The notes beneath the pieces are model-generated. The model searched no databases and was not told where the DNA came from. It was given only the letters and a program-made list of their open reading frames with translations. From contig JASJAZ010000006.1 of NCBI GenBank assembly GCA_030066785.1, forward strand, positions 3,504-67,503: 64,000 bases of DNA, in the 5' to 3' direction. Below are positions 8,785 through 22,288 of the stretch, in pieces; within the stretch, counting starts at the first letter, position 1; the number at the start of each line of letters is the position of its first letter. Source of the DNA: Desulfobacterales bacterium (GTDB lineage: Bacteria > Desulfobacterota > Desulfobacteria > Desulfobacterales > JASJAZ01). A program made the translations under genes and the position numbers.

Positions 8785-9741
8785 TTAATCGACTTCGGGT
8801 CTTGGCAGCACACCGGCTTGCTCAGCAATCTGTGGCACTTTGTGCTCCCATTCAATGGCCATTAGATGCACTCCGGCCACGCCTTGCATTTCTTTGAATT
8901 CTTCGATCTGTTCACAGGCGATTTTGATGCCTTCTTCCGCCACCTTGCCTTTGCCGGCGCCCTGCAGACGCTTGATAAGGTCTTCCGGTACATCCATTCC
9001 TGGGACCTTGCTTTGCATATATTTGGCCATACCAACACTCTTCATGGGCGTTACCCCTGCGAGAATGTATGCTTTTTCGGACAATCCCATATCGTTGGCC
9101 TGTTTAACCCAGGTTCTAAAACGTTCCATATTATAGATACATTGCGTCTGGATGAAATCCACACCCGCCTCAATCTTTTTGGCCAGCCGATGCACACGCC
9201 ATTCATAGGGCTCCGCAAAAGGATTGGCGGCTGCACCAATAAAAATCTTGGGCGGATCTTCAATCTCGGCGCCACCTAAAAATTGGCCCTCATCGCGCAT
9301 CCTTTTCACCATACCGATCAATTGCATGGAGTCGATATCAAATACCCCCTTGGCTTGAGGATGGTCACCAAATTGCTGGTGATCTCCGGAAAGACACAGC
9401 ATGTTGCGAATACCAAGCGCATAAGCGCCCAATATATCGGCCTGCATGGCCAGTCGATTGCGATCCCGGCATACCATTTGAAAATTCGGCTCCAGGCCCT
9501 CCTGCACCAAAATGAACGATGCGGCCCAGCTGGCCATTCGAACCACGGCGGTCTGATTGTCGGTAATATTGACGGCATCCACCATGCCTTTGAGATGCGA
9601 TGCTTTTTCGGTTACCTCTTTGACCGTGGTTCCGCGCGGGGGACCCAGTTCGCCTGTAAAGGCAAAATGGCCTGCACGCAATACTTTTTCTAAATTGCTA
9701 CCCGACTTATAGCCGTTCTGTTCTGTACTCATATCCGTCAC
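8785..9741 (-). CDS. metF: Methylenetetrahydrofolate reductase catalytic subunit (acetogen/SRB MetF type)
   Basis: 318-aa MTHFR TIM-barrel sequence (FAFTGELGPPRG...NITDNQTAVVRMAS...). It lies directly downstream of a MetV-type gene. Confidence 0.9.
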   Translation of the reverse strand: MTDMSTEQNGYKSGSNLEKVLRAGHFAFTGELGPPRGTTVKEVTEKASHLKGMVDAVNITDNQTAVVRMASWAASFILVQEGLEPNFQMVCRDRNRLAMQADILGAYALGIRNMLCLSGDHQQFGDHPQAKGVFDIDSMQLIGMVKRMRDEGQFLGGAEIEDPPKIFIGAAANPFAEPYEWRVHRLAKKIEAGVDFIQTQCIYNMERFRTWVKQANDMGLSEKAYILAGVTPMKSVGMAKYMQSKVPGMDVPEDLIKRLQGAGKGKVAEEGIKIACEQIEEFKEMQGVAGVHLMAIEWEHKVPQIAEQAGVLPRPEVD

Positions 9742-9808
9742 CTTCTTTAAAAATCAGTTATCATGGTTAAAAGCAGTTTGGGCAATCAACCATTTACACG
9801 GAAAAAAA

Positions 9809-10483
9809 TCATTCCTCTTCTTCCGGCTTTTTGTAGCCGGGTTGAATTAAGGTTCGCGGTACTTGATCACACCACGTACTGGGCGCCTTAATGCGTTTAA
9901 TGTTATCCAGGCGGTCCTGCGCCGACAGCCGTTCATGGATCAGGTACCAGGCACACGGTTGATCCTGGCTGATTTCGCATTTGCCCTGGTTGGTGCCACC
10001 ACAAGGTCCATTGTAAAGGCCTTTGGCACACATGGTTACCGGACAGATACCGCCGGTCCATCCCAACACGCAGCTCTGGCAGGATCGACAGCGTTCCTCA
10101 TACCAACCCACCGCCTGGTTGACGGCCAGTCCCGAGGTATCCACTGCCGGCAGAACCGGCGTTTCCGGGAATCGTTCCGCTAAAAACTGGATGCCGACAC
10201 CGCAGGCCATGGAAATGAGGGCATCGTAATCCTTTACCATATCATCCAGTTCGGCCAGATACTCGCGGTCACACTGGCGCTCCACGGTATAGGCCCCCAA
10301 TTCGATGGGATCATTATCAAGTTTGCGGGCCATGTCGATTTCGGCGTTTAAGACCGCCACTTCCTTCTCGCCGCCGGCCAGACAAACCGAGACGCAGGTA
10401 CCGCAGCCCACGTTTAGAACTTTCTTATAGCCTTTGAGCATATCTTTGATTTCTTCAAAAGGCTTGCGCTTAGCAACTATCAT
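9809..10483 (-). CDS. metV: Methylene-THF reductase small Cys-rich subunit (MTHFR_C / MetV type)
   Basis: 224 aa, Cys-rich (CGTCVSVC...CRSCQSCVLGWTGGICPVTMCAKGLYNGPCGG), matching the MetV zinc/Fe-S subunit pattern. It is adjacent to metF. Confidence 0.85.
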   Translation of the reverse strand: MIVAKRKPFEEIKDMLKGYKKVLNVGCGTCVSVCLAGGEKEVAVLNAEIDMARKLDNDPIELGAYTVERQCDREYLAELDDMVKDYDALISMACGVGIQFLAERFPETPVLPAVDTSGLAVNQAVGWYEERCRSCQSCVLGWTGGICPVTMCAKGLYNGPCGGTNQGKCEISQDQPCAWYLIHERLSAQDRLDNIKRIKAPSTWCDQVPRTLIQPGYKKPEEEE

Positions 10484-10542
10484 TTTTCCTCCTGTTACAC
10501 CGCTCAGCTACCAAATAGATTGTTGATTAACCATCAACTATG

Positions 10543-11865
10543 CTAGAAATTTGAACTTTCCGGATGAAAGACATCCACATCTTTGAGATCATCGCCCAGA
10601 TATTCGCGTTCATTCGGACCGAGGATGCCCATGGATAAACAAATTAAGGTCCAAAGGTGGACCGTGTTCCAGGCGTGATCACGCTGGTCGCTCAGGTCGT
10701 GGATCTGCGCGTGGCAATTATGGCATGGCGTAATGCAGTAACCGGCGCCTGTATTAAGGACCTGTTCGGCCTTAAGTTTACCGTATTCCCGACGTGCTTC
10801 CGGATAGCCTGATTGCAAGAAACCACCGCCGCCGCCGCAGCAGTAATTGTTTGATTTGTTCGGAGCCATATCGATGAAGTTCTCTTTACCGACCACCGCT
10901 TCAACCACGTAGCGCAGGTCATCCGCCACCGGATCGCCAAACGATTTACGCACCAGTTGGCAGGGGTCTTGAACGGTGAATTTAACCTTGCGGTCCTTAT
11001 TCCAGTCAGAGCTGACCTTGAGCTTGCCTTCTCGAATCCACTGGGCATAGTACTGAATGATGCTTTTGATTTCAAATTTGTAATCGAGGTTGAATTTTTG
11101 CTGTCCGAACCGGACAGCGAACAGTTCGTGCCCTCATTCAGTATTGAGCCAGACCTTGCAGCCCAGATCCTCCACCGCCTTTTGTTTAACCTCGACAATA
11201 TGCTTCCAGCTTTCCTCATCGGCCATGAACATGCAGTAGTTCTCGGCCGCCCAACCCTTGGTACCGTAAGTCCAGTCGGCGCCTACCGCGTGTAAAATTT
11301 TCCACAAAGGCACCATTTCATCCGGCTCGGTCACCGGTTCACGTGAATTCTGATTCAAGAAAAACTCAGCCCCTTTTTTGTTAACCGGCGCCTGCATATC
11401 TTTAAATTCCGGCTGGGCCTCCTGGTATTCCTCCAACACATCTTCGACCACAAACTGAAAATCTTCCTCGGTGGCGCCCATGGCACTGCAGGTATCGCTG
11501 CGCAGGGCCATATCACAAGAGCCCACAATGCCCTTGGGCCGTTCTTCCCGCGGCCAGCTTTGGCGGGCATAGAAAACCAGCTGGGGGATGTTGATCTTCA
11601 TGGGACACACATACACGCAGCGGGTACACATGCTGCACATCCACACCCAGGGGGTACTGGTGATCTCCTCATCCATCCCCAGGGCGGCCATGCGCAGAAA
11701 TTTGCGCGGGTCCATGCCCTCCAAACCAGTGGCCGGGCATCCCGAGGAACACGCGCCGCATGTCAGACAAAGATTCAGATTCCCGCCTTCGGGAAGCAAA
11801 TCCTTCACCTTGTCGATAAACATGCTTTTCTTTTTGCCTCCTAATTTAATTGCTTCATCTGCCAT
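10543..11865 (-). CDS. Fused HdrC/HdrB-like (HdrD/GlpC-type) Fe-S oxidoreductase; predicted selenoprotein with an in-frame TGA at 11134-11136
   Basis: Track ORFs 11134-11910 and 10543-10953 are in the same frame and joined by one TGA: ...KVWLNTE-U-GHELFAVRFGQQKF...VQDPCQLVRKSFGDPV. The N-terminus has 2x CxxCxxCxxxCP. The C-terminus has a CCG domain (NYCCGGGGG...PCHNCH). The U sits at the second Cys position of the first CCG-type motif (C-x31-E-U-G). The start is at MADEAIK (ATG 11865), preceded by TAAGGAG. Confidence 0.8.
11101..11117 (-). promoter_or_regulatory. Candidate SECIS hairpin for the HdrCB-like UGA
   Basis: mRNA CUGUCCG-GUU-CGGACAG, a perfect 7-bp stem that starts 16 nt after the UGA. 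Confidence 0.55.
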
Positions 11866-11878
11866 AATTGACTCCTTA

Positions 11879-12325
11879 TTAGGCTGCCGCCTTCTTTTTA
11901 TTGGTTGCATCTTTATTTTGATTCAACGGATTAGGACCGAGTTCTTTGATGTGCTCGGTCATTTCCTTGGCGTATTGGGCAAAGGTCGGGCCCTCGCCGG
12001 AAGACAGGTTGTACATGCGAACCCGGTCGCCTTCAATGCCGATCTCGTCCAACAACTCCCGAACGTGATTGACTCTTTCCCGGCATCGCAAATTGCCCTC
12101 ATTATAATGACACGCGCCTTCCAAACAACCAACGCAATAGGCACCATCGGCGCCCTTTTGAATGGCTCGTAAAAGATGAATCACATCGACCTTGCCGGTG
12201 CAAGGCACCCGAATTATTTTCACATTGGCCGGATAATCCAGTCGCATGGAACCTGCCAGGTCCGCAGCGGAGTAACCTCAATATTCACAACAAAATGCGA
12301 TGATGGTTGGTTCAAAATCTGACAT
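11879..12325 (-). CDS. mvhD: MvhD-type (methyl-viologen-reducing hydrogenase delta) 2Fe-2S protein; predicted selenoprotein with TGA at 12278-12280
   Basis: Hand translation upstream of track ORF 11879-12247 stays in frame: MSDFEPTIIAFCCEY-U-GYSAADLAGSMRLDYPANVKIIRVPCTGKVD... The paralogue at 15364-16113 reads [17 protein letters not shown] at this point, so U aligns with a Cys. The ATG at 12325 overlaps the hdrA stop by 1 nt (TAATG). Confidence 0.8.
12249..12263 (-). promoter_or_regulatory. Candidate SECIS hairpin for the mvhD (11879-12325) UGA
   Basis: mRNA GGACC-UGGCA-GGUUC, a 5-bp stem including one G.U pair, starting 14 nt after the UGA. This is the weakest of the five hairpins. Confidence 0.35.
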
Positions 12326-15300
12326 TACATACCTCCAGCAAGAAGGGCATCAATTTTACAAATCAGCTGTTCGTCTTCATAGAAGCTCAGCCCGATTACC
12401 TGCCGCGGACAAACCGCCGTACATACGCCGCATCCGTGACAAAGCGCCTCGTTAATTTCAATTTCTTTTTTTTCGGTATTAAACTCCGGTACGCCAAACG
12501 GGCAGGAGCGGACACACGTCAGGCATTTCACACAATGCTCCACATCCACTTTGGCAGTAATGGCCGAAAGTTTGATGGCATCCTGGGCCAAAAAGGTTGT
12601 GGCCCGTGATGCGGCGGCCTGGGCCTGGGCAATGGTCTCCGAGATGAGCTTGGGCCCATGGGCCGTTCCGCAAAGAAAAACCCCTTCGCTGGGCATATCC
12701 ACCGGACGCAATTTGACATGCGCTTCAATGAAAAAGCCTTCCGGGTTGCGGTTTAATTTCATGATATTGCTCATCTCTTGGGTATCAGTGGCGGTCATAC
12801 CGGCACTAAGCGCCAATAAATCGGCCCTGATTTCGACATCCTGCTGCAAAATATGATCCTTGACAGTCACCAGCATGCCGTCGGAAGCCGCTTTGACAGC
12901 CGGTGGCGTATCTTTGTCAAACCGAATGAAGATAACCCCTTGCTTACGGGCTTCCATGTAGTAGTCTTCCAGCAATCCATAGGTACGGATATCCCGGTAC
13001 AGCACAAACACTTGGGCATCCGGGTTCTGTTTCCTGATCAGCAGCGCATTTTTTACGGCATTCTGGCAGCAGATGCGCGAGCAGTTTTCATTTTCTTCGT
13101 TGCGGGAGCCAACGCATTGAATCATAACAACGCTGGTCAGTTCCGCAGCACCCTTATTTTCCAACATGTCACCCAATTCCACCTGGGTGACCACCCGTTC
13201 ATCTTCGCCATATAAAAACTCTTGAGGCTGATATTCGGTGGCACCCGTGGCCACCAAAAAAACACCATGCTCAATGCGATGGGCTGCTTTATCGGCGCCC
13301 ACTTCGATCTCCGTGGCAAAGCTGCCTTTAAACCCTTCGAAACCGGCAATGCGTGCATCGGTAAATACTTGAATGTTTTCATCGTCAGTTACATCAGATA
13401 CTAGCTTCGCTACGTAAGCCGGAATATCATCACCCTCAATAGTATGGTGCAGTTTGCGGGCAAACCCGCCCAACTCGGCATTTTTTTCAACCACAATGGC
13501 GTTAAAACCTTGCCGGCTGAGCCCCAAGGCCGCATTCATCCCGGCAACGCCCCCGCCGATGACCAGCGCCTGTTTGTTGATGGGCACAACCTTTTCGTTA
13601 AGCGTATGCAGGGTGGATGCCCGGGCAACCGCCATGCGCACCAAATCCTTGGCTTTTTGGGTTGCAATCTCTGGATTATTGGAATGAATCCATGAATTCT
13701 GATTGCGGATATTGGCCATTTCAAACAGATATTTGTTGAGGCCGCAGGCCTCCAGCGTCTCCATGAACATCGCTTCATGAGTTTTGGGGCTGCAAGACGC
13801 CACCACTACCCGGTTCAATTCAAGTTCCTTGATCTTTTCTTTAATCAGATCCTGTGTGTCCTGGCTGCAGGTAAACAGGTTCTCATCGGCATAGGCCACA
13901 TTCGGCAGATTTTCGGCGTATTTACGAACTTCGGGAACATCCACAATCCCGCCGATATTGATGCCACAATTGCAAACAAACACACCGATACGCGGATCTT
14001 CCTGGCTGACATCCCTTTGTTCAGGAAGTTCAATTTTGGCGATGTCGGTTCCCCGCGCCGCAGCCAACTCGGCCCCCGCAGCACACGCCGCTGCGCTGGC
14101 TTCGGTAACCGAACTGGGGATATCCTTGGGGCCCTGCAGCACACCGCAGGTGTAGATACCGGCACGTGAGGTCGTCACCGGTGCAAAAGAATTTGTCTGC
14201 ACAAAGTTGTAATGATTTAATTCAATGCCCAAGCGTTCGGCCAGCTCGGCCCCATCCGGCTGAATCTGAAGCCCGACGGACAAAACCACCATATTGAATA
14301 CTTCTTCCTGCATCGCACCGGTTTCATCTGCGAATTTGACAACCAAATCGCCGGTATCGGGAACTTCCGTGATGGTATGAATGCGGGCTTTCACAAAACG
14401 CACGCCGTCTTTATCTTTGGCCCGGTTATAGTACTTTTCATAATCCTTGCCAAAGGTACGCATGTCCATATTAAAAATGGCGCAGTCCAAATCTCCATGG
14501 GCATGCTCTTTGGCAATCATGGCTTCCTTGACCGCATACATACAGCACACTGAAGAGCAATAGCCATTGCCGGTGCGGTTGGCATCACGGGATCCCACGC
14601 ACTGCAGCCAAGCAATTTTCTGCGGTTCTTCGCGATCCAACGGCCGCATGAGATGTCCCAGATAAGGACCGGAAGCGCTTAGAATTCGCTCAAATTCTTC
14701 ACTGGTCACCACATTGGGATATTTACCGTAGCCCAAATAGTCGAGGCTGGAGGGGTCATAACCCCGACTGCCGGCTGACAGTATCACAGAGCCGACATTG
14801 AGCGAGCTTTCGCGCACCTTATCATCGTATTCGACCGCCTTGGCGATACACATATTTTCACAAAGTCCGCAGCCGATACAGGTTTCCGTATCGATGGCAA
14901 ACGCAAGGGGTACCGCTTGGGCATATTCGATAAAGGTGGCCCGGCGGTCATCCAGCTTTAAATTGTATTGATTTACAGCGGTTACAGGGCAATGCAGCGC
15001 ACATTCACCGCATCCCGTGCATTTGACGGGATCAATGTATCGCGGACGGTTGCTCAAGGTAACATCAAAATTTCCGGGACTACCTTCCACACTTTTGATG
15101 TCGCTGCAAGTAATCAGTTCTATGTTAGGGTGCCGGCCGACCTCGACCAGTTTAGGTGAGATCACTCACATGGCACAATCATTGGTCGGGAACGTTTTGT
15201 CCAGTCGGGACATCATCCCGCCAATGGTCGGCGACTTATCAACTAAATATACTTTGTAATCCGAATTGGCCAAGTCCAGCGAAGCTTGCATGCCGGCGAT

Positions 15301-15354
15301 ACCGGCACCTACGACCATCACTGAACCGCTTTTCTTGGTACTTTCAGCTCCCAT
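12325..15354 (-). CDS. hdrA: Long (about 1009 aa) tandem-type HdrA-like flavoprotein/Fe-S subunit; predicted selenoprotein with TGA at 15166-15168
   Basis: Track ORFs 15166-15354 and 12325-15165 are in frame across one TGA: ...[30 protein letters not shown]. There are two GxGxxG FAD motifs ([22 protein letters not shown]), several ferredoxin CxxCxxCxxxCP motifs and CVGSRD...[19 protein letters not shown] precedes ATG 15354. Confidence 0.85.
15133..15150 (-). promoter_or_regulatory. Candidate SECIS hairpin for the hdrA (12325-15354) UGA
   Basis: mRNA CUGGUC-GAGGUC-GGCCGG, a 6-bp stem with two G.U pairs and GGU in the loop, starting 15 nt after the UGA. The element is identical in the paralogue. 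Confidence 0.45.
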
Positions 15355-15363
15355 GTGATCTCC

Positions 15364-16113
15364 TTATAAAGCTGCAAAAACCGGTTTACAGGCTTCCATT
15401 CCTTTGAATTCAACCATATTGGTCTTTTCCATATCAGCCAGCAGATAAGAAATCTGCCTTAAATTCAATCCAACTTTTTGGCTGATGTCGCGCGGGGCGG
15501 CACAGCCCTCTTGAATGGCTTGATAAATTAGATTCTTTTGATATTCACGCTCTAATACTTGATCCAAAACCGTTTCAAAACTGTGTTGGTCCCATTGGCG
15601 GCCATACACATCGCCTTTGGTGGTAATTTCGACTTCCTTGCCCACCATCCAACGAATCGTTTCGCCCGAAACTGTCATTTCAGCGGCTTCCAATTGGAGG
15701 GCATTGGCTTGGCAGTCAAATTTACCCTGGTTTTGGATGGAATTGACGGTTGCATTGACAACCTCCACAAACCGTTGGGCTTCTGCTGATGATACCCACG
15801 CCAAGTGGAGCCGCTCTGCACCGATACCGGCAATATCCAGTAATTTTTGGGTTAGCCGGATTTTTTTATCAGCTTGGACATTACCTTCCAGGTAATGGCA
15901 GTCACCGAAATGTCACCCTGCTACCAGGGCGCCATCACAACCTTCTTTAAAGGCTTTGATAATAAATAGGGGATCGATGCGTCCGGAACACATGACGCGT
16001 ACGGTGCGCATGTTGGGTGGATACTGCAACCGGGAGACACCGGCCAGATCGGCACCGGCATAAGCGCACCAGTTGCACAAAAACGCCGCAATTTTTGGTT
16101 CAAACTCTGCCAT
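15364..16113 (-). CDS. mvhD: MvhD-type protein with a C-terminal extension of about 130 aa; predicted selenoprotein with TGA at 15913-15915
   Basis: Track ORFs 15913-16113 and 15364-15804 join in frame: ...[60 protein letters not shown]... The U replaces the Cys in the position corresponding to CVGCLEGACHY of the paralogue (the G-C-H-x-G-x-C-H-Y type motif). Confidence 0.85.
15879..15897 (-). promoter_or_regulatory. Candidate SECIS hairpin for the mvhD (15364-16113) UGA
   Basis: mRNA CAUUACC-UGGAA-GGUAAUG, a perfect 7-bp stem starting 15 nt after the UGA. Confidence 0.55.
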
Positions 16114-16180
16114 AATACTACCTTATCAATTTGATTTAATGGTAAATGACGTTAATCAGTCAAAACGTTCATCGATTACT

Positions 16181-19100
16181 TTAGGCAATGGCACACACAG
16201 ATGCCACAATCTGCTCATCTTTAAAATGCAGCATGTCGATGGCTTTTTTCGGGCAAGATGAGGCACACAACCCGCAACCCTTGCAGGAAGCAGGAATGTT
16301 CTTGGCCCGATAACCCTTGCCCTCGACTTCTTCAACTTCAATGGCACCAAATGGGCAGACGCTGGCACATAGTCCACAACCGATACAGGTTTCCGCATCG
16401 ACCTGGGAGACCAGCGGTGAAATTTGAATATTGGCTTTGGCCAGTACCGTGGCGGCTCGGCTGGAAGCCGCCAGCGCCTGGGCAATGCTTTCATCCAGTG
16501 ACTTGGGAAAATGCGCTAAGCCACAGACAAAAATACCATCGGATGCAAAGTCGACCGGTCGCAACTTCGCATGGGCTTCCATGAAGAAGTTTTCTTCGTT
16601 GACCGGCAGCTTGTACAGTTCGGCCAGTTGGCTGTTATCCGACGGCACGATGGCCGTTGCCAAATTCAAAAGATCCGCGCTGATGATGACCTCTTTTTGC
16701 AAAATCGGATCAAACACCTGAATTTCCAAACCATCACCAGCCTCTTTAACTACCGGCTTGCGGTCCAGCGTGTAGCGAATGAAAATCACACCTAGCTGTC
16801 GTGCTTGTTTGTACAGCACTTCCCGTTCCGCATAGGTGCGGATATCGCGATACAGCACAAAAACATCTTTATCAGGTGACTGTTTCTTAATTTGAATGGC
16901 TTGCAGCACTGATCCCGTACAGCAGATCCGTGAGCAATACGGTCGCTGGTCATCACGTGAGCCGACACACTGAATAAACACAACGCTCTGCGCATCCTTC
17001 AACTTAGCAGGATCATTTTCCAGGTCATGCCACTTAGTGACACAAGGGCTTTGGCCAAACAGATATTCATCCGGTTCATAGGCTTGTCCGCCGGTGGCAA
17101 TAATAGTTGCGCCATGTTTGACCGTGACCTCACCCTTGCCATTTTTTACCTGAGTTTCGAAATTGCCGACAAAGCCCGAAGCACCTACCACTTCACTGTC
17201 TAACAATACCTTAACATCGGTGTGTTTTTCGACTTGATCGACCAAGTCCGTTAAAAAGGGTGGCACGTCACGGCCGCTCCATGTCTGATGCACATCTTTC
17301 GCGGAACCGCCCAATTCAGATGATTTTTCCACGATCGTGGTGGGAAAACCCTGATCGGCCAAACTCAGCGCGGCCGTCATACCAGCCACGCCGCCACCAA
17401 CTACCAGAGCAGATTTATCGACATCCACCGACAAATCCGGAATCGGTTCCAGCAGCGATGCGCGGGAAACGGCCATACGCACCAGGTCTTTGGCTTTCTC
17501 CGTAGCATCGGCCTTGCTCTTGGAATGCACCCAGGTGCATTGGTTGCGGATATTGGCCATCTCAAATAGATAGGCATTGACCCCCGCGTTGCGGATGGTT
17601 TCCTGAAACAACGGTTCATGGGTACGTGGGGTGCAGGCTGCGACAACAACTCGATTAAGATTCTGTTCCTTAATCACTTCAACCATCTTTTCCTGGGTGT
17701 CCTGGCTGCATGAAAACAGGTTCTCTTCCACATAGGCGACATTCGGCAGGGTTCGCGCATATTCAGCAATGGCCGGAACGTCTGCAATACCGCCGATATT
17801 CACACCGCAATTACACACAAAGACGCCTACCCGGGCGTCCTGGTCGATTACTTCAAGCTCTTTGGGAAACACCTTATCTTTGACCATGGTGCCGCGGTGA
17901 TCCGACAAGGAAATACCGGCCCGACACGCCGCAGCACTGGCTTCCATGACCGCCTGGGGAATGTCTTTGCAGCCCTGCATCACACCCGCCACATAAATAC
18001 CCGGCCGGGAAGTATTAACCGGTGCAGTGTCATCGGTTTTGACGAAGTTATAATCGTTTAACTCGATATCAAGTGTTTGGGCCAAATCAATGGCTTGATC
18101 GGACGGCTCCATACCAACCGACAATACCACCATATCAAACTGCTCGATATTGCGTTGGCCTTCATCAGAGGCGTACTCTAAAGCCAAAGTTCCACTGTCA
18201 TCAGCTTGTGTAATGGAATGTACTTTGGAGCGAATAAATCGAACGCCTTCATCCTTGGCGCGATTGTAATATTTCTCAAACTCTTTGCCATGGGTTCGCA
18301 TGTCCATGAAAAATACCGTGGCTTCGAACTGTTCGCCAATATGCTCTTTGGCGATCAGGGCTTCCTTGATGGCATACATGCAGCAGACCGAGGAACAGTA
18401 TTCATTGTCACAGCGGTTCAAGTCCCGCGAACCCACACATTGCAACCACGCGATCTTGGTTGGTTCCTGTTCATCCGATGGTCGCAGCACATGACCACCA
18501 GTGGGGCCGCTGGCGGACAAGATGCGTTCAAACTCCATGCTGGTCATAACATTGGGCAGTTTGGCGTGCTGATAATTATCTAAAGATGATGGATCGAACG
18601 GTTTGTATCCCGCCGTGGCAATGACCGCACCCACGTTTAGATTCAGCGTTTCTTGCTTTTGATCAAAATCAATTGCATCGGTAGGACAATATTTTAAACA
18701 GGCCCCACATTTGCCTTTTTTCAAATAAATACATCTTTCGGGATCGATCACGTATTTCAGGGGCACCGCCTGGGCATAGGGAATATATGCCGCCTTGCGT
18801 TTGGAAATGGCTTCATTGAATTCATCGGCGGTTTTAGCAGGACATTTCTCCTCACAGGCCCCACAGGCAATACATTTTTCCATATCCACATAGCGGGCCG
18901 ATTTTTTGATGGATACCGTAAAGTTCCCTTCTTCGCCCTGAATATCGGTAACTTCAGAAAGGGTATGCAACTCGATGTTTAGGTGCCGGCCGACCTCGAC
19001 CAGTTTGGGTGAGATAATTCACATGGAACAGTCGTTGGTGGGAAAGGTCTTGTCAAGCTGGGCCATGGCACCACCGATGGCCGGCGATTTTTCCACCAGA

Positions 19101-19207
19101 TGGACATAATAGCCTGAATCGGCAAGATCGAGAGCAGCCTGCATGCCGGCGATGCCAGCACCGACCACCATAACCGATCCGCTTTGGGATGATTTTTTTG
19201 AACTCAT
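16181..19207 (-). CDS. hdrA: Second long (about 1008 aa) tandem-type HdrA-like subunit; predicted selenoprotein with TGA at 19019-19021
   Basis: Track ORFs 19019-19207 and 16181-18970 are in frame across one TGA when the intervening codons are read: ...[38 protein letters not shown]... The domain order matches the paralogue at 12325-15354. RBS CAGGAG precedes ATG 19207. Confidence 0.85.
18986..19003 (-). promoter_or_regulatory. Candidate SECIS hairpin for the hdrA (16181-19207) UGA
   Basis: Same CUGGUC-GAGGUC-GGCCGG element as in the paralogue, starting 15 nt after the UGA. Confidence 0.45.
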
Positions 19208-19594: not shown

Positions 19595-20644
19595 TTAGGC
19601 CGCTTTTTCATCCGTCGCCGTCTCAGTCGTGCTGTTGTTGCCCCACTTGTACTTGGCGTATTTGAGATAGCCAAATACATTATTGAGACGGGGGTCAACC
19701 ACATCTTCAATCGGCATAACCGTGCCAGGCAGCAGCGGAATTAAGTAGTCTCCTAACGCCTTGGCGCCGCCGCCGGTGAGAATAATATTATCGATGTCCC
19801 AGTCATCAGACCATAGCCGTTCGATATCGTTGGCAATGAGCTCAGCCGAATGCGAAAAAACCTTTGTCTTGATATCGTCAAGTGCATATTCCTGCCCACG
19901 GATCTTAATGCGACCCGATTCAACCGCTTTATAAAGCCGATATAACTCCAAGTTGACTCCGGTTTCTTCACGCAGTTTTTGAGCAATGCCGCTGAAACTT
20001 TTCGAAATTCCGTTATCCATCGTGGCGCTTCCCCGATCAACAAAACGCATCTGATCCATAATCGTGCAGTCCACTGTCCGAAAACCGATATCAACAACCC
20101 CAACTTTCTGTTTCGTCAAATCTTTATTGGCAATTTTCCCGTTATCATCCATGAGGATATTGAAGACGCTTCCCAGGGGTTGGGGCATCATGCGCACCTT
20201 ATTAATGTTTATCCGGCGGGTCACCTGACTGCCATCGGCTTTATGAAAGGTAATTTCGTGTTGACCCATTAGTATCTTGGTGAAGTTCGTGTAAAATTTC
20301 TTTAGATAGCCAACCGGCAGGCCCGATACAACATTGAGAGGAATATATTTTTCAGGAAAACTGCCAGCGATGGTAAGGGCCAGGACCTTGACGAATTTGG
20401 ATATTAGTTTTTCCTGATTCAAGGTATACTGTTGAATATTGGATTGTAACTCCGCAAAATCACCAACAAAATAAGATTTATCGTCAATGGTAACATGCAG
20501 GTTATCTTTAATTGAATCCTTGGCAATTTTTGTGCGGAATTTGATATCGGTAGCCTCCCCGAGCAGCGACTTAAAAACGATTGCCTCTTTGCCGTCAGTG
20601 GCTTTGGTAAAACCAAACCCAACATCAATGCCTAAAACTTCCAT
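19595..20644 (-). CDS. ParM/Alp-family actin-like ATPase (ALP_N-type N-terminus); orphan with no ParR-like partner visible
   Basis: 349 aa. The N-terminal phosphate-1 motif VLGIDVGFGFTKA, a second motif VGVVDIGFRTVD and a distal ILTGGGA match the actin/Hsp70 fold as in plasmid-segregation actins. A strong GGAGG RBS is present. Confidence 0.7.
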   Translation of the reverse strand: MEVLGIDVGFGFTKATDGKEAIVFKSLLGEATDIKFRTKIAKDSIKDNLHVTIDDKSYFVGDFAELQSNIQQYTLNQEKLISKFVKVLALTIAGSFPEKYIPLNVVSGLPVGYLKKFYTNFTKILMGQHEITFHKADGSQVTRRININKVRMMPQPLGSVFNILMDDNGKIANKDLTKQKVGVVDIGFRTVDCTIMDQMRFVDRGSATMDNGISKSFSGIAQKLREETGVNLELYRLYKAVESGRIKIRGQEYALDDIKTKVFSHSAELIANDIERLWSDDWDIDNIILTGGGAKALGDYLIPLLPGTVMPIEDVVDPRLNNVFGYLKYAKYKWGNNSTTETATDEKAA

Positions 20645-21046: not shown

Positions 21047-22288
21047 ATGAATCCGAAATCCTCCAATGAAGACACTGAGCTGAAAACCGAAGAGCGGCTG
21101 CTATTGGTGGATGACAATCCCGCCAACCTGCAAGTTTTGATGGAAACCCTGCAGGGCCAAAACTATAAGCTGTTGGCGGCTAAAAATGGCGAGATGGCGT
21201 TGGCCATTGCCCGCAAAGCGCAACCGGAACTCATTTTGCTGGATATCATGATGCCGGGTATCGACGGTTATGAGGTCTGCCGGCGATTGAAATCAGATCC
21301 GCACACCTCGGAAATTGCCATCATTTTTCTTTCCGCCATGGATGCCACCCAGGATAAAGTTAAGGGCTTTAAATTAGGCGCCGTGGACTATATTACCAAG
21401 CCGTTTCAGCCGGAAGAGGTGATTGCCCGGGTTGAAACCCATCTGACCATTCATCGATTGCAGCAAAGCCTCGAGCTGCGCAATCAGGAGCTGCAAGAAC
21501 TGAACGCCAATCTTGAGCGAAAGGTTGAAGAAAAAAGTAAAGAATTGCTGAATACGCGCGATGCCGTGATCTTTGGTCTGGCCAAATTAACTGAAACCCG
21601 CGATGATGACACCGGGTTGCATCTTGAAAGAATCTGTAAATTTGTTGAGATACTGGCCCGCAAAATCGCCAAAAATCATCCAGAGATCGACGAAAGATGG
21701 ATTCGAACCGTCACTTCCACAGCGGCACTGCATGATATTGGTAAAGTGGGCATTCCGGATGCTGTGCTGAATAAGCCAGGCCCGTTAACCTCTGAAGAAC
21801 GGGAAATCATACAGATGCACCCAACCATCGGGGGCGATACACTGCTTGAAATTAGAGACCAGTGGGGCAACAGCCCATTTCTGGCCCGGGCCATAGAAAT
21901 TTCCATGGCCCATCATGAAAAGTGGGACGGCAACGGCTACCCTTTCGGAATTAAAGGCGATGCCATCGCCCTTTCAGCCAGGATTCTGGCAGTTGCGGAT
22001 GTCTATGATGCCCTGACCTGCAAACGAATCTATAAGGACGGCATGCCGCATGCGAAGGTCAAAAAAATAATCGCCGAAGGCTCAGGTAAGGATTTTGATC
22101 CGGAGATCGTTGAAGCGTTTATGGCCACTGAAAAGGAGATTGAAAAGGTGGCCCAGGAATTGCGCACCTTAGACGAAAATAAGACTGTCGGAATCGCTAC
22201 GATTAATCGGCAGAAAGCGATGGCTGCGTGGCGACAACAAATATGTGAATTTGTCGAGTTAACCGATCAAAAGCAGCCAAAAAAATAA
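21047..22288 (+). CDS. Response regulator with REC domain, coiled-coil linker and HD-GYP domain (putative c-di-GMP phosphodiesterase)
   Basis: REC motifs (LLVDDNPANL...ILLDIMMPGIDG...KPF). HD-GYP motifs (LHDIGKVGIP...HHEKWDGNGYP). Confidence 0.9.
   Translation: MNPKSSNEDTELKTEERLLLVDDNPANLQVLMETLQGQNYKLLAAKNGEMALAIARKAQPELILLDIMMPGIDGYEVCRRLKSDPHTSEIAIIFLSAMDATQDKVKGFKLGAVDYITKPFQPEEVIARVETHLTIHRLQQSLELRNQELQELNANLERKVEEKSKELLNTRDAVIFGLAKLTETRDDDTGLHLERICKFVEILARKIAKNHPEIDERWIRTVTSTAALHDIGKVGIPDAVLNKPGPLTSEEREIIQMHPTIGGDTLLEIRDQWGNSPFLARAIEISMAHHEKWDGNGYPFGIKGDAIALSARILAVADVYDALTCKRIYKDGMPHAKVKKIIAEGSGKDFDPEIVEAFMATEKEIEKVAQELRTLDENKTVGIATINRQKAMAAWRQQICEFVELTDQKQPKK

Follow-up and report, generated by a model that had tools for sequence, protein, structure and literature searches.

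The 64,000-nucleotide stretch of Desulfobacterales bacterium DNA analysed here (contig JASJAZ010000006.1, assembly GCA_030066785.1; hereafter the window) carries on its reverse strand two paralogous genes for long HdrA-like proteins, g1 and g2, each of which is read through one in-frame UGA codon and contains, a short distance 3' of that codon, the same small hairpin. This hairpin, a candidate bacterial selenocysteine insertion sequence (SECIS), and the genes that carry it are the subject of this report, and the coordinates of all features are collected in Table 1.

The hdrA genes and their UGA codons

The UGA is codon 63 of both genes and stands in the shared context FPTNDC(A/S)M-U-(V/I), in which U denotes the predicted selenocysteine (Sec). 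Residues 11-431 of g1 align with solved HdrA structures (9sfi_A, E 1e-128; 5odc_A, E 4e-118) continuously across the UGA, and position 63 falls opposite Cys197 of 5odc_A (residue number obtained by arithmetic) and opposite a non-standard residue, 'X', in 9sfi_A. In 44 homologous sites the codon aligned with the UGA is TGC or TGT; an in-frame UGA aligned with a Cys of homologues is itself among the features by which bacterial SECIS elements are recognised. Pyr_redox_2, Fer4 and flavin adenine dinucleotide (FAD)-binding domains were identified in g1 with Pfam, and both genes have the mark of the HdrA selenoprotein family (COG1148, CxxU), with UGA at the CxxU position of the motif FPTNDC-x-M-U, beside the FAD-binding fold.

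A mechanically produced list of open reading frames (ORFs) begins both hdrA genes only after the UGA, at 12325-15165 (946 amino acids) and 16181-18970 (929 amino acids), respectively. The nearest public proteins carry Desulfobacterales labels, are 82-84% identical to g1 and cover 83-86% of a 435-residue query, which is consistent with the same truncation in the public entries, whose FAD-binding N-terminus would then be missing from the annotation. For annotation, both HdrA proteins are to be treated as full-length selenoproteins of approximately 1009 amino acids and not as truncated ORFs beginning after the UGA.

The shared block and its hairpin

On the forward strand the 25-mer GGTGCCGGCCGACCTCGACCAGTTT was found by exact match search in exactly two copies in the window, at 15129-15153 and 18982-19006, and with up to three mismatches allowed it had no match in 100 dinucleotide-preserving shuffles. 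A preliminary description of this DNA had reported the same block as eight codons with every synonymous position shared; the block and its composition are correct, and the positions given for it (15130-15154 and 18983-19007) are one base too high. The block consists of codons +5 to +12 (K L V E V G R H), identical at 8 of 8 codons in the codon-aware alignment, plus one base of codon +13. Over the 998 codons of that alignment g1 and g2 share 53.0% amino acid and 57.0% nucleotide identity, and the same codon is used at only 216 of 515 (42%) identical degenerate residues, so that the uniform synonymous conservation along the whole gene that had been named as a sign of gene conversion is absent. 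The block is the longest identical run between the two genes, followed by one of 17 nucleotides (nt). Immediately 5' of the Cys-x-Met-UGA, the third position differs at 7 of 10 identical residues, and over the 12 codons before the UGA it differs in most degenerate codons, matching the earlier remark that codons on that side of the UGA diverge at many third positions.

The chance of 8 identical codons out of 8 at the site of the block is 1.4e-4 for this pair alone, and a run of at least 25 nt anywhere in the alignment arose in 154 of 5000 permutations (0.03). The pair on its own is therefore suggestive and not conclusive, and the strong evidence comes from other genomes.

Folding of the 40 nt beginning at the UGA of g1 with RNAfold gave a hairpin with a 7-bp stem, CUGGUCG/CGGCCGG, and a 4-nt loop, AGGU, at -10.2 kcal/mol; the minimum free energy (MFE) structure of the corresponding segment of g2 is this hairpin alone, likewise at -10.2 kcal/mol. 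The hairpin CUGGUC-GAGGUC-GGCCGG of the preliminary description is thus real, with one closing pair added by RNAfold. In both genes the distance from UGA to loop is 22 nt, made up of the spacer and the 7-nt 5' arm. An alternative fold of this hairpin class (class A), with GGCC (nt 31-34) in the loop after the manner of the other classes, was rejected, only 3 bp being possible by inspection.

The bSECISearch consensus for bacterial elements calls for 3-9 nt in the apical loop and 4-16 bp in the upper stem; one or both of the first two loop nucleotides are G, as a rule with G or U next, the apical loop lies 16-37 nt from the UGA, and the MFE does not exceed -7.5 kcal/mol (PMC13188914). The HdrA element fits this consensus throughout, with a loop of 4 nt, a stem of 7 bp, G at loop position 2, a distance of 22 nt and -10.2 kcal/mol. 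In the loop A-G-G-U the position-2 G is followed by G, and if the loop is read as the hexaloop G-A-G-G-U-C, a G stands at position 1.

Comparison across genomes

The comparison set was obtained by a scan of one genome per species, which yielded 80 loci in addition to the window. Sites were defined by the motif FPTNDCxx-[U/C]-xxxPK and numbered 105, of which 61 have TGA and 44 have TGC or TGT at the Sec position. All TGA loci with a named lineage belong to 'Deltaproteobacteria' or Desulfobacterota, and the Cys sites come from Deltaproteobacteria/Desulfobacterota, archaea, Dehalococcoidia and Firmicutes.

The exact 18-nt hairpin is present at 50 of 61 TGA sites and at 0 of 44 Cys sites. The peptide KLVEVGRH is encoded at 51 TGA sites (49 in 42 loci outside the window and the two in the window, all unique over 114 nt), and CTG GTC GAG GTC GGC CGG is exact in 50 of them (48 of the 49 outside the window and both inside). 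Third positions of codons +6 to +11 are 98-100% invariant across these 51 sites, whereas in flanking codons of invariant amino acid the most frequent third base reaches only 0.51-0.86. Codons departing from the consensus number 1 of 306 in the hairpin vs 248 of 663 in the flanks (Fisher p = 1.6e-47, a value that is only indicative because the sequences are related). The suppression of synonymous change after the UGA, for which the preliminary description had proposed a check, is thus confined to the hairpin codons, and both contrasts show nucleotide conservation that depends on the UGA, as a functional definition of the element demands. The constrained part of the block is accordingly the 18-nt hairpin together with a weaker preference for the preceding AAA; its last bases (the third of the His codon +12 and the first of codon +13) match in the window by chance, CAC and CAT being used at about 50:50 across species.

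Six Cys sites encode the same peptide, KLVEVGRH, with other codons, and in three loci that hold a TGA-type and a Cys-type copy side by side (L009, L020 and L022) the hairpin is found only in the TGA-type copy. From each gene's own codon usage, 0.19 genes carrying all six codons were expected and 50 were observed, at G+C contents of third codon positions (GC3) ranging from 0.31 to 0.95. Local folding energy over nt +12 to +45 averages -10.4 kcal/mol (standard deviation, SD=1.0, n=61) at TGA sites vs -5.1 kcal/mol (SD=2.9, n=44) at Cys sites (Mann-Whitney p = 6.6e-15). In these genomes the 18-nt hairpin is a practical marker separating UGA-type from Cys-type HdrA, one for which Rfam has no model.

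The 11 TGA sites without the exact block all have a hairpin, which is of another type at 10 of them and at L011_4190 is class A with one changed base. Three genes encoding KMLDVGRH (L011:7782, L030:4975 and L036:7844) have GGAUGUC-GGUC-GRCAUCC, six Desulfobulbales-type genes encoding KLVECGRH (L043, L045, L069, L074, L076 and L079) have GAGUGC-GGUCG-GCACUU, and one gene encoding KLVEAGRS (L072:4178) has GAGGCC-GGUC-GGUCUC. These hairpins of other clades place a GGUC-containing loop at nt 31-34(35). UGA-type HdrA genes thus have in common not a single sequence but a stable hairpin with GGU(C) in its loop at 22-27 nt from the UGA. Loci L011, L030 and L036 each hold class A and GGAUGUC-type hairpins together, so that one SelB must there accept loops 4-5 nt apart.

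Degree of constraint

The wobble-compatible synonyms CUG>UUG, GUC>GUU (at +7), GUC>GUU (at +9) and GGC>GGU are absent from the 51 sites, and they would weaken the hairpin by 2.0-5.6 kcal/mol, to between -8.2 and -4.6 kcal/mol. The loop change GAG>GAA leaves the energy at -10.2 kcal/mol, yet it too occurs at 0 of 51 sites. The missing wobble variants are explained by a stability threshold, the stem being short and including two G-U pairs as it is, and the missing GAG>GAA by a sequence-specific contact with the loop, at the conserved G of the consensus. That the SelB of Desulfobacterota reads the stem sequence as well, or that the hairpin has a second role such as selenium-dependent control of an hdrA-mvhD-glpC-metF operon, is improbable.

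Interpretation

The block that g1 and g2 share is very probably the bacterial SECIS of these paralogous HdrA selenoprotein genes, a reading drawn from sequence to which we assign a probability of approximately 0.93. The UGA aligns with the Cys of homologues, the hairpin has consensus SECIS geometry, and nucleotide invariance is coupled to the UGA. An RNA-level constraint of the SECIS kind had been suggested in the preliminary description, and it is borne out by this coupling, by the Cys sites without the hairpin and by the age of the duplication (below).

Several results weigh against a SECIS. Rfam 15 gave no SECIS-type match at gathering score over the whole window and no relevant match at E values up to 10 around the two sites; the folding energy of the hairpin is not an outlier among shuffles (z = -0.7 to -1.1); compensatory base changes are not to be had from the class-A helix, which is invariant; the intact 18-nt hairpin accompanies TGC (never TGT) at the Sec position in five HdrA genes from metagenomes (L081-L085); and selA, selB, selD and tRNA-Sec were not found within the 64-kb window, which is uninformative either way. 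As a calibration, the validated fdhF SECIS of Escherichia coli is also not an outlier (z = -1.33), so that the HdrA hairpins are not discredited by their own weak z-scores. Shuffle z-scores and Rfam 15 models are both standard screens, and both would miss these bacterial SECIS hairpins.

The five metagenomic genes were obtained from a scan of 241 million records with the pattern ATGTGY-N12-AARCTGGTCGAGGTCGGCCGG, which covers the TGY form only. Two of the five have a GC3 of 0.86-0.89, at which the hairpin codons have a chance of roughly 1-2% per gene, and two stop about 20 codons after the Cys codon, one of these having a run of N there. On the five contigs, which are short, no tRNA-Sec was found, only a tRNA-Leu, and no MvhD or GlpC motifs. 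These genes may be fossils or products of chance, and they might instead reflect recoding of a sense codon to Sec; natural recoding of a Cys UGU codon is mentioned in PMC10778597. Remnant SECIS elements after Sec-to-Cys conversion are documented in other families (PMC1794560, Figure 4). Two Cys-type genes in the genome set, both among the six that encode KLVEVGRH, are each one stem-breaking base away from the hairpin, L010_4121 by GUC>GUG and L035_4178 by GGC>GGG; placed beside or among UGA-type genes in the tree (as L010:4121 and L035:4178), they look like recent Sec-to-Cys conversions with a decaying SECIS. In this they resemble the documented fossils, as do the five metagenomic genes with an intact hairpin; the comparison applies to relatives only, and the window genes g1 and g2 differ in having UGA. 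Cys-containing orthologues with the same block had been named beforehand as evidence that would speak against a SECIS. Taken literally, five metagenomic genes are of this kind and none of the 44 genomic Cys sites is; they do not overturn the genomic contrast and are not regarded as a refutation.

Among other explanations, an RNA-level role beside or instead of SelB recruitment (slowing of the ribosome at the UGA, protection of the mRNA or selenium-dependent operon control) draws on an invariance that exceeds the need for base pairing, the four wobble changes and the one energy-neutral change all being absent. E. coli SelB, moreover, uses a SECIS-like hairpin for autoregulation. Such a role is nonetheless very unlikely: the element agrees with the SECIS consensus in every criterion and is strictly associated with UGA, the loss of 2-5.6 kcal/mol from a short stem makes a stability threshold sufficient, the loop G is a known SelB contact in the consensus model, and no extra hypothesis is required.

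Recent short-tract gene conversion, by which approximately 25 nt would have been copied between the paralogues and the identity would be an accident without RNA function, had been offered as an alternative in the preliminary description. Such an event would suit the proximity of the two genes, which share a strand and are separated by about 3.8 kb, the lack of covariation in the helix, and a pair-alone permutation value for a run of at least 25 nt that is no lower than the 0.03 given above. When the 400 residues that follow the Sec/Cys codon are placed in a neighbour-joining tree, however, g1 clusters with the downstream copies of L001-L006, L055 and L061, and g2 with the upstream copies of L002, L004, L005, L055 and L061 and with L056. 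Since g1 and g2 fall into separate clades with their own orthologues, the duplication predates those species, and the hairpin is present in every one of these orthologues while flanking synonymous sites have diverged. It is present as well where a UGA-type site is the sole HdrA site found in a locus, and it is lacking from the Cys-type copies linked to a UGA-type copy in L009, L020 and L022. Conversion cannot account for 50 observed carriers against 0.19 expected across species; it is neither needed nor able to explain the pattern, and its likelihood is remote.

That CTG GTC GAG GTC GGC CGG reflects chance or merely the preferred codons of a conserved peptide is next to negligible, for although all six codons are GC-ending and common in GC-rich genomes, and two of the five metagenomic Cys-type carriers have the high GC3 at which chance amounts to about 1-2% per gene, the probability from own codon usage is 3.0e-4 for g1 (GC3 0.56) and 8.1e-4 for g2 (GC3 0.53), the block is kept at a GC3 as low as 0.31, and the peptide is spelled with different codons in the six Cys-type genes that share it.

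As a SECIS, the element would act as follows. In the transcript, 15 nt separate the in-frame UGA from the 18 nt CUGGUCGAGGUCGGCCGG, which would fold into the 7-bp hairpin. Its apical loop, AGGU (or GAGGUC with the closing G-C pair open), would present GGU(C), the putative site of SelB binding. With the UGA in the ribosomal A site, the tethered complex would outcompete release factor 2, and residue 63 would become Sec; this residue of the CxxU motif is where the active-site Cys stands, beside the FAD-binding fold. These 18 nt would also encode L-V-E-V-G-R of the conserved HdrA motif, so that nearly every base would be fixed twice, by the hairpin and by coding, leaving the synonymous positions frozen in both paralogues and in their orthologues.

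Operon context

The order of genes in 8785-19207 on the reverse strand is hdrA(Sec)-mvhD(Sec)-hdrA(Sec)-mvhD(Sec)-glpC-like(Sec)-DUF5981 (MTHFR C-terminal)-MTHFR, with five in-frame UGA (Sec) codons in one apparent operon (Table 1). We take this order to resemble the MetFV-HdrA-MvhD type module of the Wood-Ljungdahl pathway.

Table 1. Positions in the window of the two hdrA genes, the neighbouring predicted selenoprotein genes and their downstream elements
Feature	Position	Strand	Basis and remarks
g1, long (fused) HdrA-like selenoprotein gene, 1009 codons	12325..15354	-	read through one in-frame UGA (Sec63)
In-frame UGA of g1 (Sec63)	15166..15168	-	sequence; motif FPTNDCAM-U-VISPK
25-nt block, copy in g1	15129..15153	-	exact match search; codon alignment; codons +5 to +12 plus one base
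Predicted SECIS hairpin of g1, CUGGUCG-AGGU-CGGCCGG	15133..15150	-	RNAfold; nt 19-36 (U of UGA = 1), 15-nt spacer
g2, paralogous long HdrA-like selenoprotein gene, 1008 codons	16181..19207	-	Sec63; codon alignment; neighbour-joining tree
In-frame UGA of g2 (Sec63)	19019..19021	-	sequence; translation
25-nt block, copy in g2	18982..19006	-	exact match search
Predicted SECIS hairpin of g2, same as in g1	18986..19003	-	RNAfold
MvhD1 (MvhD/FlpD-like, between the hdrA genes)	15364..16113	-	UGA 15913-15915, VAG-U-HFGDCHY
MvhD1 hairpin, CAUUACCU-GGA-AGGUAAUG	15879-15897	-	begins exactly 15 nt after UGA
MvhD2 (MvhD/FlpD)	11879..12325	-	UGA 12278-12280, FCCEY-U-GYSAADLAG
MvhD2 hairpin, GGACCU-GGC-AGGUUC	about 12244-12268	-	begins 14 nt after UGA
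GlpC/HdrD-like Fe-S protein	about 10543..11910	-	UGA 11134-11136, WLNTE-U-GHELF
GlpC-like hairpin, GCUGUCCG-GUU-CGGACAGC	11100-11118	-	begins 15 nt after UGA

The FlpD profile matches MvhD1 on both sides of its UGA, and the UGA and hairpin of this gene are kept in L002-L006, L055 and L061. The ATG of MvhD2 overlaps the TAA stop of g1, and the ORF list begins this gene, too, only after its UGA, which stands at a different Cys position from that of MvhD1, where MvhD1 itself has Cys. Beyond its UGA the GlpC-like protein has the motifs CCGGGGG and PCHNC; the 70 nt from that UGA fold at -21.2 kcal/mol (z = -3.1), and the hairpin of L003-L006 shows a compensatory exchange, with A-U in place of U-A at one position of the stem. 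All three UGAs recur at the same positions in L002-L006, family members have Cys or Sec there, and the loops of the three hairpins are G-first.

That a single operon has UGA in frame at five known Sec positions would imply a Sec-decoding trait, and selABCD would be expected elsewhere in the genome. A tRNA search of the 64-kb window returned no tRNA, and none of the ten largest other ORFs in it is SelA, SelB or SelD; these include NuoF-like, TRAP transporter, HrpA, acyl-CoA dehydrogenase, LysA-like, aminotransferase, aldehyde dehydrogenase and ABC-transporter binding proteins. The organism would thus be a selenium-dependent Desulfobacterales-type bacterium with an HdrA-MvhD-GlpC-MetF module containing five selenocysteines.

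Directly upstream of the selenoprotein operon lies a gene for an actin-like protein (Pfam ALP_N and MreB-like_C, ParM/Alp type) at 19595-20644 on the reverse strand, and a gene for a response regulator with an HD domain is located at 21047-22288 on the forward strand.

Comparison with known systems

Archaeal Sec-containing HdrA (Methanococcales) belongs to the same protein family and has Sec at the same position, at which 9sfi_A has its non-standard residue. The archaeal SECIS, in contrast, is found within the 3' untranslated region and has a GAA_A bulge (PMC13188914), whereas the element in the window lies within the ORF and is of bacterial type.

The fdhF SECIS of E. coli, the sequence of which was found in 5419 of 5426 E. 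coli genomes, is likewise a stem-loop directly downstream of the UGA within the ORF, with GGUC in its apical loop, and the mechanism of SelB tethering would be shared. The fdhF stem-loop has a bulged U in its upper stem and starts 11 nt after the UGA, compared with 15 for HdrA. The HdrA hairpin is shorter, with a 7-bp stem only and without the long lower helix or the bulged U, its GGUC is at nt 27-30 vs nt 22-25 in the fold of fdhF, and there is no similarity outside GGUC. Lacking the bulge and having a 15-nt spacer, it falls outside a strict fdhF-type definition; by analogy, the HdrA element would work like the fdhF SECIS without being of the fdhF subtype.

The closest counterparts are deltaproteobacterial. 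Sec-containing HdrA (including fused hdrA-hdrA), FrhD/MvhD and GlpC, clustered and each with a bacterial SECIS, were described in 2006-2007 from Deltaproteobacteria (PMC1794560, Zhang et al., 2006) and from Olavius symbionts (PMC1976440), and a Sec hdrA is annotated in Desulfococcus multivorans (dmul_C02770/80; PMC5109826). The window agrees with these in protein family, in the Sec position (CxxU), in the fused 'hdrA-hdrA' type of long gene, in the clustering with Sec-containing FrhD/MvhD and GlpC, in the location of the hairpin in the ORF directly 3' of the UGA, and in a geometry that fits the bSECISearch consensus, and it shows no difference in kind. As the best database proteins are only 82-84% identical to g1, the genes are new copies from an unsampled relative. 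No paper was found that reports the near-absolute nucleotide invariance of the HdrA hairpin over some 50 species, an invariance that follows from known principles. This hairpin, a well-supported bacterial SECIS of the ordinary kind that occurs here in new gene copies, leaves the current understanding of Sec decoding unchanged.

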